NCBI GenBank assembly: GCA_003504275.1
Contig: DOAO01000007.1
Coordinates: forward strand, 75,535 to 139,534
From: Patescibacteria group bacterium
GTDB taxonomy: Bacteria > Patescibacteriota > Minisyncoccia > Phycocordibacterales > UBA12445
Direction of reading: 5' to 3'
DNA length: 64,000 nt
The translations under genes and the position numbers were made by a program. The notes below the pieces were generated by a model. That model did no database searches. It was not told where the DNA came from and saw only the letters and a program-made list of their open reading frames with translations. Below are positions 8,377-63,675 of the stretch, piece by piece. Position 1 is the first letter of the stretch; each line of letters starts with the position of its first letter.

Positions 8377-8515
8377 CTTTGTCATCCGCACGAGTGTTGT
8401 CATCCCAGACTTGATCTGGGATCCACTAGCATTGGTGGTGAAACATGGATCCCAGATCAAGTCTGGGATGACAAAGGTTGTGTGTCATCCTCGCGAATGC
8501 GGGGATCCAGAAAGT
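8377..8515. repeat. nested palindromic intergenic element (MITE/REP-like) carrying GTCATCC...GGGATCCAGAAAG motifs
   Basis: Perfect 26-bp inverted repeat GTCATCCCAGACTTGATCTGGGATCC / GGATCCCAGATCAAGTCTGGGATGAC, each arm itself hairpin-forming. An outer imperfect inverted repeat (TGTCATCCGCACGAG / TCATCCTCGCGAATGCGG) flanks it. Confidence 0.6.
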
Positions 8516-27488: not shown

Positions 27489-27606
27489 CTTAACAATTTT
27501 AGACTATTTGTCGTCCTTTTGATAGAGTTACCGTTATTGAAACTATTGTTTGTGTTATTTGGTTACAAATACACCCTATTAAATAAAATTTAAAATTAAA
27601 TAATAT

Positions 27607-27864
27607 ATGTACTGCTATGTCTATGTTTTGAGGTCTGATAAGGATGGTAAAATGTATACTGGTTATACAAATAATTTAAAATTTAGATTTGATAGTCACA
27701 ATAAGGGTCTAGTGTTCTCAACAAAAAACAGAAAACCTTTTAAATTGATATATTTTGAGGGGTGCTTAAATCAACAAGATGCGACTAGGCGTGAAAAATA
27801 TTTGAAGACTATTTATGGAAAGAGGTTTATTAAAAGCAGGATCAAATCTTATTTAATAGGGTAA
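27607..27864 (+). CDS. GIY-YIG nuclease domain protein
   Basis: CYVYVLRSDKDGKMYTGYTNNLKFRFDSHN carries the GIY...YTG core. 85 aa. Confidence 0.55.
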   Translation: MYCYVYVLRSDKDGKMYTGYTNNLKFRFDSHNKGLVFSTKNRKPFKLIYFEGCLNQQDATRREKYLKTIYGKRFIKSRIKSYLIG

Positions 27865-27927
27865 ATGAAAAATAAATACAAGATAGGGGTGGCGGGGGTT
27901 GGGATGGTGGGTGTTCAGGTGAGATAA
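27865..27927 (+). pseudogene. duplicated 5' fragment (20 codons) of the downstream UDP-glucose dehydrogenase-like gene
   Basis: MKNKYKIGVAGVGMVGVQVR* matches the start of the 28959 gene (KKGQYKIGVAGVGMVGVQAERW). A 37-nt stretch is identical (27883-27919 = 28992-29028). Confidence 0.6.
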
Positions 27928-27952: not shown

Positions 27953-28966
27953 ATGAAAAAGGAAAATAAAAATATTGATGAAAAATTAGATAGAGGAGAG
28001 ATAGCAATTTATCAAAATAAGGACAAGGGTGTTATCGTGGAGGCTAATCTTAAGGAGGATACTATTTGGCTTACACAAGCTCAAATAACAGACATTTTCG
28101 GAGTAGACAGAAGCGTCATAACTAAGCATATTCGTAATATATTTAAAGACGGGGAGCTAGAAGAAAAAAGCAATGTGCAAAAAATGCACATTGCTAATTC
28201 TGATAAATTGGTTAATTTTTATAACTTAGACATGATTCTCTCTGTTGGTTATAGGGTTAATTCTAAACAGGCAACACAGTTTAGGGTTTGGGCGACAAAG
28301 ACTCTCAAGGAACATATCATTAAGGGATACACGTTAAACAGTAAAAGATTGGAGGAGTTGAAGGGAAAGCAGTTAAACGAATTTGAACAAGCGATTGGCC
28401 TAATAAAAAAAACCATAGACACAAAGATTCTTTCTGGAGGAGAAGAGAGTGGTCTTTTGAAGGTCATTACCGAATACGCTAATTCCTGGTTACTCTTACA
28501 GAGATATGATGAAGATGGACTGACTCTACCAAGGAAGGTAAAAAAGCCTACTTTTTCTCTTAAATATGATTTTGCGCAATTGGCTATTTTTGATTTGAAG
28601 AGAGATTTAATGAAGAAGGGAAACGCAAGTGAGCTTTTTGGTACCGAAAGGTCAAGTCTTCAGGGTATAATAGGAAATATCTACCAAACTTTTGGTGGTT
28701 CTGAATTGTATTCAAGTATAGAAGAGAAAGCGGCTCATCTTCTTTACTTTGTTATCAAGGACCATCCTTTTGCTGACGGAAATAAACGTATAGGCTCTTT
28801 TTTGTTTATTGTTTTTCTTGCACAGAATAAACATCTTTTTAGAAAGAATGGGGATAAAAAAATAAATGACAACGCTCTTGTTGCGGTTGCTTTGCTTGTA
28901 GCCGAAAGTGAGCCTTCACACAAAGATACTTTAATAAAATTGATAACAAATTTAATTAGTGATTAA
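27953..28966 (+). CDS. RhuM-family (virulence RhuM) / Fic-DOC fusion protein
   Basis: N-terminal RhuM-like region (IWLTQAQITDIFGVDRSVITKHIRNIF...SVGYRVNSKQATQFRVWATKTL). C-terminal Fic motif HPFADGNKRIGS (HxFx[DE]GNKR). Confidence 0.65.
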   Translation: MKKENKNIDEKLDRGEIAIYQNKDKGVIVEANLKEDTIWLTQAQITDIFGVDRSVITKHIRNIFKDGELEEKSNVQKMHIANSDKLVNFYNLDMILSVGYRVNSKQATQFRVWATKTLKEHIIKGYTLNSKRLEELKGKQLNEFEQAIGLIKKTIDTKILSGGEESGLLKVITEYANSWLLLQRYDEDGLTLPRKVKKPTFSLKYDFAQLAIFDLKRDLMKKGNASELFGTERSSLQGIIGNIYQTFGGSELYSSIEEKAAHLLYFVIKDHPFADGNKRIGSFLFIVFLAQNKHLFRKNGDKKINDNALVAVALLVAESEPSHKDTLIKLITNLISD

Positions 28967-29834
28967 AGCCATGAAAAAGGGGCAATACAAAATAGGGGTG
29001 GCGGGGGTTGGGATGGTGGGTGTTCAGGCAGAAAGATGGTTCAAGTCAAAGGGATTTGAAGTTTTTGCTTATGATAAATTCAAAAATATTGGAAAAGAGG
29101 AAGATCTGCAGAAAGCCGATTTGATATTTTTGTGTTTACCTACTCCCCATAAGGATAAGGTTAATACGGGGGTGGATATTTCAGTATTTTTTGATTTTTT
29201 GAAGAAGTTTAAAGAACCAAAGATATTTGTAATCAAGTCCACCGTTCCGCCCGGAGCGACCGAGGCAATACAAAAGAAATTTCCCAAACACAAATTCTTA
29301 CATAGTCCGGAGTTTTTGACCGAAGCCACCGCTTGGAAAGATTTTTCAAAACCTGTATTTCAGCTTCTTGGATATACAGAAAAAAGTAAAGATGTGGCTC
29401 AGAATGTTTTAGATATTCTTCCAAGGTCTAAAAAAACAAATTTATTAATGAAGTCTTCTGAGACAGAGGTATTCAAATTTGCACGAAATGCATTCTTTGC
29501 TGTTAAGGTTGTTTTTGCTAATCAGATATATGATATTTGTAAATCTTTTGGCGGTGATTACGATATTATAAAAAATTTAATGCTTTCCGATCCTTGGATA
29601 GGAGGACATCATTTGGAGGTGATTCATAAAGGGTATAGGGGGTTTGGAGGTAAGTGTCTTCCAAAAGATCTCAAGACTTTCATAAAGGTATTTAAAACCA
29701 AAAAATTAAAGCCAGAATTATTTGAAGCGACCGATAGAATCAATGATGGTCTTATAAAAAAACAAAAACTCACAAAAACCTTGAATAAATATTGGTTGGG
29801 AAATTACAACGAGCCCGATTTAGTAAAATTTTAA
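28959..29834 (+). CDS. UDP-glucose/GDP-mannose dehydrogenase family protein, short form (N-terminal NAD-binding and central domains only)
   Basis: N-terminal KIGVAGVGMVGV Rossmann motif. GFGGKCLPKDL catalytic Cys region near the C-terminus. Ends ~100 aa earlier than canonical ~430-aa enzymes. Confidence 0.5.
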   Translation: MIKAMKKGQYKIGVAGVGMVGVQAERWFKSKGFEVFAYDKFKNIGKEEDLQKADLIFLCLPTPHKDKVNTGVDISVFFDFLKKFKEPKIFVIKSTVPPGATEAIQKKFPKHKFLHSPEFLTEATAWKDFSKPVFQLLGYTEKSKDVAQNVLDILPRSKKTNLLMKSSETEVFKFARNAFFAVKVVFANQIYDICKSFGGDYDIIKNLMLSDPWIGGHHLEVIHKGYRGFGGKCLPKDLKTFIKVFKTKKLKPELFEATDRINDGLIKKQKLTKTLNKYWLGNYNEPDLVKF

Positions 29835-29895: not shown

Positions 29896-29989
29896 ATTGT
29901 CATTCCCGCAGATAGAAAATTTAGAAAGAGGCTCAACCTCCTAAAAAAGAGGTTGAGCCTCTAATTTTCTATCTGCGGGAATGACGATG
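29896..29989. repeat. nested palindromic MITE/REP-like element (outer inverted repeat GTCATTCCCGCAGATAGAAAATT, inner 13-bp-stem hairpin GAGGCTCAACCTC...GAGGTTGAGCCTC)
   Basis: Perfect 23-bp outer inverted repeats at 29899-29921 and 29964-29986 enclose a conserved inner hairpin. The same inner hairpin recurs at ~32925-32960. Confidence 0.65.
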
Positions 29990-32304: not shown

Positions 32305-32404
32305 AAAATATTTGCTGTAAATAAGCTGTTTTGGTAATATATAGGAGTGAGCGTTGTTCAATAATAATTATTTTATTTGAACTGCACTTCATTAAGCAAG
32401 TACA

Positions 32405-32441
32405 AGCGCAAAACCCCCGAAAGGGGGTTTTGCGTTTTTTT
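32405..32441 (+). terminator. rho-independent terminator
   Basis: GCAAAACCCCC-GAAA-GGGGGTTTTGC followed by T8. Confidence 0.7.
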
Positions 32442-32769
32442 TGTGGAATTGATAAAATTATAGGTAGATCTTTTGTTTAGTTAAGGTTGGCGGAACGCTC
32501 ACATCTTTTGTACTTGTGGAGTTTGTTTCCGCCAACTTTAAGTAGATGAAAACTTGTCCGCCAAAATTTTTATATAATAAATAAAATTGTGCGGTAATAT
32601 TTTAAATAGGTATTAATTTATTTTATCGTTGAAATTGATTGTATAAAAATTTAGGAGGATGAATTTTAAAAAAAAACGAGAGCAATCTCGTTTTTTTCTT
32701 GCCCCGTTAGAAGTTCTCCATTCGGATTAATGCGATTCCCGTCAGAATGACAGTCTCGTCGGGTCAGCA

Positions 32770-32995
32770 TCCACTCGCCACCGTCTTTGCGAGACCGAAG
32801 GTCGTGGCAATCCAGAAAGTATTATGAACAATCTGGATTGCTTCAAGCTTCGCTTTCGCAAAGACGATAAGAAATATTTTTTGTAAATTATTTTTCGCTG
32901 TCTTTGCGAGATTTAAAAATTTTAGAAGCTCAACCTCCTAAAAAAGAGGTTGAGCTTCTTTTTAAAAAATTTTTAAATCTCGAAATGACGACAAG
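32770..32995. repeat. two adjacent nested palindromic elements of the same family as 29896-29989 and 8377-8515
   Basis: Inverted repeat GTCTTTGCGA...TCGCAAAGAC enclosing GCAATCCAGA...TCTGGATTGC. Then inverted repeat CGAGATTTAAAAATTTT enclosing the AGCTCAACCTCCTAAAAAAGAGGTTGAGCT hairpin. Confidence 0.55.
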
Positions 32996-33162
32996 AAATA
33001 TTTTTTATTTTATTTTTTTAAAGTTATCCACATATTTTTTATTTTTTTTATTACAAAAAATTTTTTTATGTGAGATAATTAAATTATTAGAGCAACATCA
33101 TCACAAGAATTTTTATTTAAAAAGGTCGGATGTTGTCTCCAAGCAAAAAAAAGAAAAATAAA

Positions 33163-33249
33163 ATGGCAGCAAAAAAGAAAGCAAAGAAAGTAGTAAAGAA
33201 AGCAGTAAAGAAAGTTGCAAAGAAGAAAGTTGCAAAGAAGAAGAAATAG
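33163..33249 (+). CDS. candidate small ORF encoding a 28-aa Lys/Ala/Val-rich basic peptide (MAAKKKAKKVVKKAVKKVAKKKVAKKKK)
   Basis: ATG-initiated ORF immediately followed by a strong terminator. Below the 60-aa ORF-track cutoff. No clear SD, so tentative. Confidence 0.3.
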   Translation: MAAKKKAKKVVKKAVKKVAKKKVAKKKK

Positions 33250-33258
33250 TTTTTAACA

Positions 33259-51121: not shown

Positions 51122-51343
51122 ATAAATAACCCCTTCTCAGGATTCCGCTCCGTCATACCTGGAGTTTCCCTTACTGGCATAAGGAGTCCTTGTGGATATA
51201 TGTGACTGTATGGAATGGACTAAGGTCATACACCCAATCCCCGCCCTCCTAAGTAGATAAATTGGGTAATTGGAGGAGGGAGTTTATGGTGGAGTTTTGA
51301 TTATTAATAAAATAATACCACTTTCCAGACAGGAGTATTTTAT

Positions 51344-56958: not shown

Positions 56959-57153
56959 ATGCCAAGATTAGATGGAACAGGCCCAATGGGCCAGGGGCGT
57001 GGTATGGGTCGTGGGCAGGGGGGGGTTGGGAGAGGACGTCGGGGTTTTTCTCAGAACCAAGTTAGAAAACTTGATGGAACAGGCCCAATGGGTCAGGGAC
57101 CAAGAACTGGCAGAGGGTTGGGAAATTGTCCCGCTTCTGATAAAAGGGTTTAG
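56959..57153 (+). CDS. DUF5320-family small Gly-rich protein
   Basis: MPRLDGTGPMGQGRGMGRGQGG...LDGTGPMGQGPRTGRGLGNCPAS with an internal repeat and a C-terminal Cys. Confidence 0.55.
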   Translation: MPRLDGTGPMGQGRGMGRGQGGVGRGRRGFSQNQVRKLDGTGPMGQGPRTGRGLGNCPASDKRV

Positions 57154-63479: not shown

Positions 63480-63675
63480 GTGGATAACTTTTGCACCCTC
63501 GTCACCGTCATTGCGAGACGAGGCGCATTGCCCAGTAGTGAGCTCTGCTCTACTACCTTGGGTCCTAGCCGAGTCGTGGCAATCCCCGTCGACCAATCCA
63601 GGAATCCATTCCCGTTTCCGTCATTGCGAAGGCTTTAGCCTGTGGCAATCCAGACTGAGTTTTTTATGATATTAT
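63480..63675. repeat. cluster of GTCATTGCGAG / GTGGCAATCCAGA palindromic repeat motifs (same family as 8377, 29896, 32770)
   Basis: GTCATTGCGAGACGAGG...GTCGTGGCAATCC...CCGTCATTGCGAAGGCTTTAGCCTGTGGCAATCCAGACTGAG followed by a T-run. Confidence 0.5.

Follow-up and report, generated by a model that had tools for sequence, protein, structure and literature searches.

Five intergenic loci in a 64,000-nucleotide stretch of DNA from a Patescibacteria group bacterium (GenBank assembly GCA_003504275.1, contig DOAO01000007.1, positions 75,535 to 139,534; hereafter, the window) are probably clusters of Ssn-related motifs (SRMs), that is, NTS-like repeats: a known kind of repeat in a new composite form. 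Judged by sequence, the outer arms of these palindromic loci are not a new family and belong to the SRM class, like the Neisseria NTS. New here are the lineage and an undescribed composite, nested form; the kind of repeat itself has been known since 2025. In two of the loci, the centre of the palindrome is occupied by a second hairpin, which is an independent module resembling repetitive extragenic palindromic (REP) elements and which recurrently ends up in the centre of SRM palindromes.

The Ssn/SRM system was described mainly from Proteobacteria, in a paper that makes no mention of Patescibacteria (Chenal et al. 2025, PMC11893778). Its authors define the NTS of Neisseria (CGTCATTCCCGCGMAVGCGGGAATCYRG) and a wider class, the SRMs, which are hairpins of 20-50 nt with a conserved GTC upstream and a C after the palindrome, summarized as the string HGTCWYN(0-2)YYVSBRHN(0-5)WNVSBRGN(0-2)RNCYNB. 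SsnA, a small single-domain GIY-YIG nuclease, binds NTS/SRM and nicks just upstream, solely in single-stranded DNA (ssDNA). In Neisseria and Wolbachia, Ssn binds SRM hairpins in single-stranded form and nicks them a few bases to their 5' side. In N. meningitidis, SsnA binding depends on no base more than on the C that directly follows the palindrome, and SsnA activity reduces transformation by NTS-bearing DNA (PMC11893778).

The initial annotation of the window had proposed a family of nested palindromic elements at five loci, and these proved to be real: all are intergenic and have motifs and long palindromes in common, far above chance. In the window, whose G+C content is about 35%, the motif GTCATYSCNV occurs 11 times against 2.9 expected, and GTCWTTSCGM five times against 0.6; none of 100 shuffles reached 11 or 5, respectively. 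The tail motifs by themselves are not significantly enriched in the window. The palindromes include inverted repeats I4 (8397-8474; arms of 29 nt, 100% complementary), I6 (29896-29988; 26 nt, 96%), I3 (32782-32866; 35 nt, 83%) and I2 (32885-33004; 39 nt, 82%). The loci had also been placed often at convergent gene ends, which is mistaken, since all five sit between co-directional plus-strand genes.

The sequence of the source genome that could be read comprises 103 kb over two contigs: the window, 9.5 kb upstream and 9.3 kb downstream of it (L089 and L087, reached via proteins encoded at the window ends) and 20 kb of a second contig (L003). The window sequence also occurs in Rifle aquifer metagenome scaffold_236 / Parcubacteria group bacterium GW2011_GWF2_38_76 (GCA_000993015.1). 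The locus is also represented by a second assembly (L002), which matches the window at 100% identity, so no insertion polymorphism is visible. To guard against circularity, two covariance models were built solely from copies outside the window. R1 represents SRM types 1 and 2 from other genomes, including four NTS copies around the ssnA homolog of N. gonorrhoeae, and R2 represents type-3 copies from other contigs of the candidate phyla radiation (CPR) and from other parts of the source genome. E-values from both models are rough, because calibration was short. The units and composites, with their positions in the window, are as follows.

8398-8426, plus strand: SRM unit A1, TGTC-ATCCCAGA-cttga-TCTGGGAT-CCA; left half of a head-outward doublet.
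8445-8473, minus strand: SRM unit A2, same sequence as A1 on the opposite strand; right half of the doublet; R1 E 7.5e-6.
8483-8510, plus strand: SRM unit A3, TGTC-ATCCTCGC-gaat-GCGGGGAT-CCAG; R1 E 5.7e-7.
29898-29986, unstranded: composite B, a double-headed palindrome (inverted repeat I6) with a second repeat hairpin at its tip.
29927-29962, unstranded: inner hairpin of B, AGAGGCTCAACCTC-ctaaaaaa-GAGGTTGAGCCTCT; REP-like module.
32722-32752, minus strand: weak call of a decayed NTS-like remnant, GTCATTCTGACGGGAATCG, spotted by eye and not significant (R2 E 0.57, R1 E 8.6).
32782-32816, plus strand: SRM unit C1, type 3 with decayed head, CGTCTTTGCGAG...GGCAATCCAGA; left half of a doublet (I3); R2 E 1.1e-5.
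32832-32866, minus strand: SRM unit C2, type 3; right half of the doublet; R2 E 0.047.
32899-32990, unstranded: composite D, a double-headed palindrome (inverted repeat I2) with partly decayed type-3 heads (GTCTTTGCGAG / CTCGAAATGAC).
32924-32959, unstranded: inner hairpin of D, AGAAGCTCAACCTC-ctaaaaaa-GAGGTTGAGCTTCT; differs from that of B by a compensatory pair.
63506-63588, plus strand: SRM unit E1, type 3, with a 45-nt nested insert (...CCCAGTAGTGAGCTCTGCTCTACTACCTTGGG...); R2 E 4.8e-5.
63619-63654, plus strand: SRM unit E2, compact type 3, CGTC-ATTGC-ga-AGGC-ttta-GCCT-gtg-GCAAT-CCAGA; R2 E 7e-9, R1 E 0.23.

The units are oriented and follow one formula: 5'-YGTC, a stem that begins with AT and ends with AT around a variable interior, and then CC(A/R)G-3'. 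Three types of clamp occur in the window, ATTCCCGC...GCGGGAAT, ATCCCRGA...TCYGGGAT and ATTGCGAG...GCAAT. Seven units, those beginning at 8398, 8445 (minus strand), 8483, 32782, 32832 (minus strand), 63506 and 63619, have YGTC directly 5' and C directly 3' of the palindrome. The same units are recovered by the models: R1 finds three (8483-8510, 8445-8473 on the minus strand and 8398-8426; E 5.7e-7 to 9.3e-6) and R2 finds four (63619-63654, 32782-32816, 63506-63588 and 32832-32866 on the minus strand; E 7e-9 to 0.047). A1, for example (R1 E 9.3e-6), folds as an 8-bp hairpin and forms one arm of the perfect 29-nt inverted repeat I4. In Rfam, matches were sub-threshold only, to generic long-hairpin (miRNA precursor) models, and no family matches the repeats.

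Like NTS and other SRMs, these repeats are intergenic, multi-copy, oriented hairpins with a YGTC head, a stem starting with AT and a C/CYRG tail, and some CPR copies are identical to the Neisseria NTS save for the first base. In CPR genomes, such units bracket a gene of about 100 codons for a GIY-YIG protein 51% identical to the Neisseria homolog. Unlike the published repeats, many units have longer, nested interiors that fail the published string, and double-headed palindromes without the 3' C are not described there. The heads also face inward at gonococcal ssnA, whereas in CPR loci they face outward from the gene. One option raised initially was that the outer arms are REPs of the kind bound by a REP-associated tyrosine transposase, or RAYT (GTCATTCCCGC, GTCATTGCGAG ... 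GGCAATCCAG, GTCATCCC ... GGGATCCAG). That assignment is set aside: they match NTS/SRM and, in CPR relatives, flank genes of the Ssn type, not RAYT genes.

The Ssn-type genes emerged from loci fetched for a different protein. The window encodes an 85-aa GIY-YIG protein (27607-27864, plus strand), and 80 loci encoding its relatives were obtained from Patescibacteria, Bacteroidota, Proteobacteria and other phyla. Within these loci we found a second kind of small GIY-YIG open reading frame (ORF), the Ssn type, represented by four ORFs (L071 9404-9757 and 1842-2210, L044 7677-8042 and L049 1459-1719). By eye, head-outward GTCAT hairpins bracket all four, which lie on CPR-like contigs. The Neisseria reference protein was the SsnA homolog of N. 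gonorrhoeae (L208, NZ_CP119140.1), not SsnA of N. meningitidis; one CPR ORF is 51% identical to it over 90 aa (E 1e-34), and a search with one such ORF found a single gene in N. gonorrhoeae, flanked by NTS copies. Given SRM flanks at four of four ORFs and this level of identity, CPR bacteria do possess true Ssn-type genes flanked by SRMs. As an aside, two complete gonococcal chromosomes (2.17 Mb; including NZ_CP119140.1) carry a plasmid label in the plasmid collection.

The window's own GIY-YIG gene lies about 2 kb upstream of B and might be proposed as the cognate nuclease. It encodes a single-domain protein of Ssn-like size, is present in at least three copies in the source genome, and has a distant relationship to SsnA: a pairwise comparison with the N. 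gonorrhoeae homolog gives 31% identity over 68 of 94 aa and E 3e-9. We nevertheless consider this role very improbable, because the subfamily is bracketed, in 82 loci across phyla, by a different inverted repeat of its own (TTYACCCYGTNARATA / TATYTNACRGGGTRAA), with co-varying arms. In 1.05 Mb of subfamily loci, the strict SRM string occurs 11 times and never beside the gene (about 82 homologs), and an R1 or R2 match lies within 500 bp of only two of 82 subfamily copies. The protein also fails the published Ssn rule (BLASTP to SsnA with E < 1e-10 and at least 75% coverage). Sequence comparison places the gene in a sister subfamily, which would not be the partner of these SRMs.

The SRMs of the source genome are found in three arrangements: single units, head-outward inverted doublets, and 90-nt double-headed palindromes (B and D). 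Doublets fold into hairpins of 29-35 bp that resemble REPINs, the inverted REP doublets of RAYT systems. The double-headed palindromes keep only two 5' halves, and their tip bears the second, unrelated hairpin, GCTCAACCTC...GAGGTTGAGC. In B, GTCATTCCCGC heads both strands, with a perfect 6-bp clamp and GTC...GAC on each strand, and the 3' end reads GAC instead of CC. Folded as ssDNA, the long palindromes are far more stable than shuffled sequences: B reaches -42.2 kcal/mol (z -14.6), the A1/A2 pair (8396-8476) -34.6 kcal/mol (z -10.5), D -29.8 kcal/mol (z -10.5) and the C1/C2 pair -26.7 kcal/mol (z -7.3).

Whole composites recur elsewhere in the same genome. A clamp-based scan of the other contig identified an intact copy of D, CGTCATTGCGAG...CTCGCAATGACG, at L003 8068-8156, which has the same inner hairpin and aligns end to end, as well as a head-outward type-3 doublet with C-like architecture at L003 13942-14026. 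When B, D and the L003 copy are aligned, similarity begins at GTC and stops at GAC, and the flanks are unrelated. A further head-outward doublet lies in the groES-groEL spacer on the same contig as the window, and its minus-strand unit (L089 3854-3936) has the nested insert of E1. Downstream of the window, mosaic SRM clusters occur at L087 15000-15305 and 20400-20535 (equivalent to window positions of about 67460-67765 and 72860-72995). In total, there are about 15 model-supported units and three double-headed composites in the 103 kb. The linker segments of the L087 clusters repeat too; for example, CCCCGTCGACCAATCC is also found in locus E at 63583-63600, an organization of higher order like that of bacterial interspersed mosaic elements (BIMEs) or neisserial intergenic mosaic elements (NIMEs). 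In a related species with the same SecA-Wzy_C gene order (L006), the C/D cluster is absent, and a simple SRM, GTCATTCCCGACCACTATCGGGAATCC, sits about 100 nt upstream of Wzy_C, at the place of B in the window, where the alignment is weak.

These copies show that composites spread as whole units to unlinked sites, with ends at the GTC/GAC heads and without target duplication. No target-site duplication borders B, D, the L003 copies or L124. The expectation of the initial annotation that this is a dispersed repeat family and not a set of independent terminators is thereby borne out, because copies occur beyond the window (on the other contig of the same genome and in other metagenomes) and have exact common ends at GTC/GAC. 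The terminal inverted repeats, small size, dispersed copies and common ends might also suggest classical miniature inverted-repeat transposable elements (MITEs) left by a DDE transposon, an option raised at the outset. We find this scarcely credible: the inverted ends are there, but no copy has a target-site duplication, no transposase with matching ends was found in the sequence read, and what forms the terminal repeats is the oriented hairpin motif that belongs to another system. There is also a likeness to dRS3 repeats, which PMC11893778 cites, and to NIMEs, reportedly described by Parkhill in 2000, in which ATTCCC...GGGAAT clamps similarly surround variable internal segments within intergenic mosaics. 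The present repeats differ in belonging to another phylum, in having three clamp sequence types, and in that B and D have a second mobile hairpin as their internal segment.

That 28-nt hairpin, GCTCAACCTCCTAAAAAAGAGGTTGAGC, occurs exactly twice in the window, at 29931-29958 in B and 32928-32955 in D, against a chance expectation of 0.00. B and D thus carry the same inner hairpin, with 94% identity over a common stretch of 36 nt; the two mismatches amount to a compensatory G-C to A-T change in the stem. The near identity of these hairpins had been recognized from the start, although the stem has 14 bp, not 13. Scanning metagenomes for GCTCAACCTC-N6-10-GAGGTTGAGC yielded at least 117 stretches, mostly on A+T-rich, CPR-like contigs, and the consensus among the matches listed is TGGAGGCTCAACCTCCATAAKGGAGGTTGAGCCTCCA. 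A literature search for the sequence returned nothing relevant. Among the matches listed, only about six to eight copies lie between GTC...GAC heads and about 109 of 117 lack such heads, so the inner and outer repeats are independent. Convergent SRM pairs enclose the hairpin on other CPR contigs as well: in a 190-nt repeat family from another CPR sample, for example, it lies midway between two convergent type-3 SRMs, with similarity starting at the GTC head.

Clustering of the ORFs that neighbour the inner hairpin in metagenomes revealed one family that stands out, an IS200-like Y1 transposase of about 230 aa (Pfam Y1_Tnp, E 2e-7 to 3e-10). Its best NCBIfam match is REP-associated tyrosine transposase (REP_Tyr_transpos), at 45-49 bits and below the cut-off of 80. 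Among the matches listed, the hairpin is inside or directly adjoins eight of the nine Y1 genes in its loci, and one of these genes (L151) is flanked on both sides. These data show that the inner hairpin is linked to Y1 (RAYT-like) genes in other genomes. The two L151 hairpins (230-290 and 968-1010) have outer arms ATATCAAG/CTTGATAT in common, but in the upstream copy the 9-bp core is inverted, reading GGTTGAGCC instead of GGCTCAACC, so that the duplex core has opposite polarity relative to the loop.

The inner hairpin can also reside within genes. Among the matches listed, long ORFs accommodate 21 of 107 testable copies in frame; these encode GGSTSxMEVEPP-like peptides such as GGSTSIMEVEPP. 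Loci with in-frame copies include L096, L102, L107, L138, L154, L176 and L199, and several different positions within RAYT-like genes are occupied. Rickettsia palindromic elements, reportedly described by Ogata in 2000, are likewise small palindromic repeats in frame within protein genes, comparable with the 21 of 107 copies among the matches listed. They differ in being 100-150 bp long and Rickettsia-specific, and no window copy of the present hairpin lies within a coding sequence.

With this association in hand, a RAYT (an IS200-like Y1 HUH transposase) might be thought to recognize and spread all arms, making the whole family one of REPs or REPINs. The link of the inner hairpin to Y1_Tnp genes, the best NCBIfam match of those proteins and the REPIN-like doublets all point in that direction. 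However, the GTC-headed outer arms match NTS/SRM profiles and flank Ssn-type rather than Y1 genes, about 109 of 117 inner-hairpin copies among the matches listed are found without GTC...GAC heads, the RAYT-like proteins fall under the curated cut-off (49 versus 80 bits), and neither the window nor the 103 kb of source genome contains the IS200/IS605 or RAYT gene that the initial annotation advised looking for. We therefore regard a single RAYT-driven family as unlikely. The original REP/RAYT idea holds for the inner hairpin, which flanks or lies inside IS200-like Y1 genes in other metagenomes, and fails for the outer arms.

Comparison with the REP/BIME and REPIN-RAYT systems of Proteobacteria, reportedly described by Nunvar in 2010, by Bertels and Rainey in 2011 and by Ton-Hoang in 2012, reveals likenesses and differences. 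Both involve short hairpin repeats tied to a gene for a dedicated ssDNA-specific nuclease that they flank, inverted doublets that form long hairpins as a unit, mosaic clusters, and, for the inner hairpin, an association with Y1 genes. By contrast, the outer-arm enzyme here is of the GIY-YIG type, not HUH/Y1, the RAYT-like proteins are under the curated RAYT cut-off, and the inner hairpin is often in frame inside Y1 or other genes.

It is also conceivable that the loci are intrinsic, possibly bidirectional terminators, alike by convergence. Every locus is intergenic, and no other terminator separates B from the UDP-glucose dehydrogenase gene that precedes it; a stem followed by a T-run is seen in the inner hairpins of B (plus strand) and D (minus strand) only. 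Convergence is nonetheless improbable, because unlinked copies are identical over 28-90 nt with exact common boundaries, and their conserved non-palindromic head and tail would be superfluous for termination. Moreover, T-runs are missing from the SRM units, a canonical terminator (32404-32437) precedes the C/D cluster, and the inner hairpin occurs within reading frames in 21 of 107 cases among the matches listed. One doublet is located between groES and groEL, which are normally co-transcribed. The suggestion of modular terminators would thus suit the inner hairpin alone, and there only as a side effect.

Several observations weigh against interpreting the five loci as SRM clusters. Only A3 (8483-8510) fits the published SRM string exactly, where 0.05 matches are expected in the window; the loops or stems of the other units are longer than the string allows. 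Neither R1 nor R2 matches B or D, which have a G instead of a C after the palindrome (3' end GAC). Single units fold only weakly or marginally better than shuffles (z -0.3 to -2.7). The putative orthology of the B site with the simple SRM of L006 rests on a weak alignment. No Ssn-type (cd10448-type) gene and no Y1/IS200/RAYT gene is present in the window or in the 103 kb of source genome, so we infer both enzymes for this organism.

Taking the loci as SRM clusters, we propose that an Ssn-type nuclease would act on these sites in this organism. The autonomous form would be an Ssn gene with a head-outward SRM on either side, of the kind found in other CPR genomes, and the doublets and double-headed palindromes may be gene-less relatives of this SRM-ssn-SRM unit. 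The REP-like inner hairpin might have entered the single-stranded tip of an extruded palindrome, and any transcription termination that it causes would be a by-product. A bolder proposal, which we offer tentatively and consider doubtful, is that SRM-gene-SRM is a true transposon whose sole enzyme is a GIY-YIG ssDNA nuclease of about 100 aa. The doublets and double-headed palindromes would then be its non-autonomous derivatives, and B and D would be chimeras that arose when a RAYT-driven hairpin landed in an extruded SRM tip. If so, CPR genomes would host two hairpin-based selfish systems that parasitize each other's structures, or three, if the ACCCTGTTAAATA-type GIY-YIG element is counted.

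These findings place the Ssn/SRM system in the ultra-small bacteria of the CPR, here in a tiny groundwater bacterium. CPR bacteria depend on the uptake of foreign DNA, and a nuclease that cuts tagged single strands could thus shape which DNA is kept. The repeats are modular, with a conserved clamp and exchangeable inner hairpins, and they fuse the motifs of two hairpin-specific nuclease systems in one element. Such fused elements are concrete substrates for asking whether Ssn-type nucleases mobilize DNA in addition to cutting it. For annotation, these motifs give rise to many spurious ORFs among metagenome proteins.

The GIY-YIG gene of the window is the core of a unit of about 300 bp (27573-27866) with the inverted repeat ACACCCTATTAAATAA / TTATTTAATAGGGT, whose second arm consists of the last codons and stop of the gene. 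The subfamily is built likewise, with an upstream arm TTYACCCYGTNARATA and a complementary arm formed by the last codons and stop. Relatives 63-77% identical to the window protein are distributed across many phyla (loci L007-L086), and a perfect inverted repeat of 10-18 nt with co-varying arms was found in 55 of the 84 loci examined. A tblastn search of plasmids with the window protein gave nothing useful. Several units reside inside conserved motifs of other genes, namely those for four-helix-bundle 23S-IVS proteins, integrases and RAYT-like proteins; in a GxxExxY gene, the motif GFLEKV|YENAM is restored once the unit is removed. A coded test of host ORFs restored by unit removal was too permissive, and the trustworthy cases are those identified by eye in conserved motifs. 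Gene-less mini-hairpins of this repeat were found in L060, L058, L085 and L135.

At least three copies of the unit exist in the source genome, in the window, at L003 9955-10259 and at L089 6543-6848. The last of these is inside a glycosyltransferase gene (L089 6440-6900), some 3 kb upstream of the window start. The first 26 codons of the host gene are duplicated there as an 83-bp direct repeat that flanks the element, whose own stop codon is lost. As a result of this duplication of the host 5' end, the glycosyltransferase reading frame is intact downstream. The unit has the look of a minimal mobile or homing element and is separate from Ssn/SRM. Next to the window copy, a 45-nt direct repeat (27875-27919 and 28984-29028, 98% identical) brackets a Fic/RhuM-family gene (27953-28966) and encodes the N-terminal GxGxxG motif of the following UDP-glucose dehydrogenase gene (28959-29834). 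This arrangement suggests an insertion by which the start of the host gene was duplicated.

Two further results were set aside. A relaxed hairpin finder (GTC head, 6-bp clamp, one mismatch) returned 16 hits versus 6.8 in shuffles, with similar results for control trinucleotides, and was uninformative. A G+C-rich stretch with GTCATAC heads (51125-51300) folds no better than shuffles (z +0.9) and was excluded from the family.

Some other features of the window may merit attention. An imperfect hairpin at 32470-32551, TTAAGGTTGGCGGAAC...GTTTCCGCCAACTTTAAG, lies downstream of the Wzy_C terminator and is kept in sequence and position in L006 (4345-4270); Rfam gave nothing above threshold for it, and it could represent a regulatory element or small RNA. 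At 33164-33250, a lysine-rich ORF of 28 codons (MAAKKKAKKVVKKAVKKVAKKKVAKKKK) is followed by a strong terminator, and is also kept in L006, where the segment that carries it is inverted. Finally, a 33-nt direct repeat containing GGAACAGGCCCAATGGGCCAGGG (56964-56996 and 57066-57098, 88% identical, 102 nt apart) is situated in the 590-nt gap before a P-type ATPase gene, overlapping a called 64-aa ORF.

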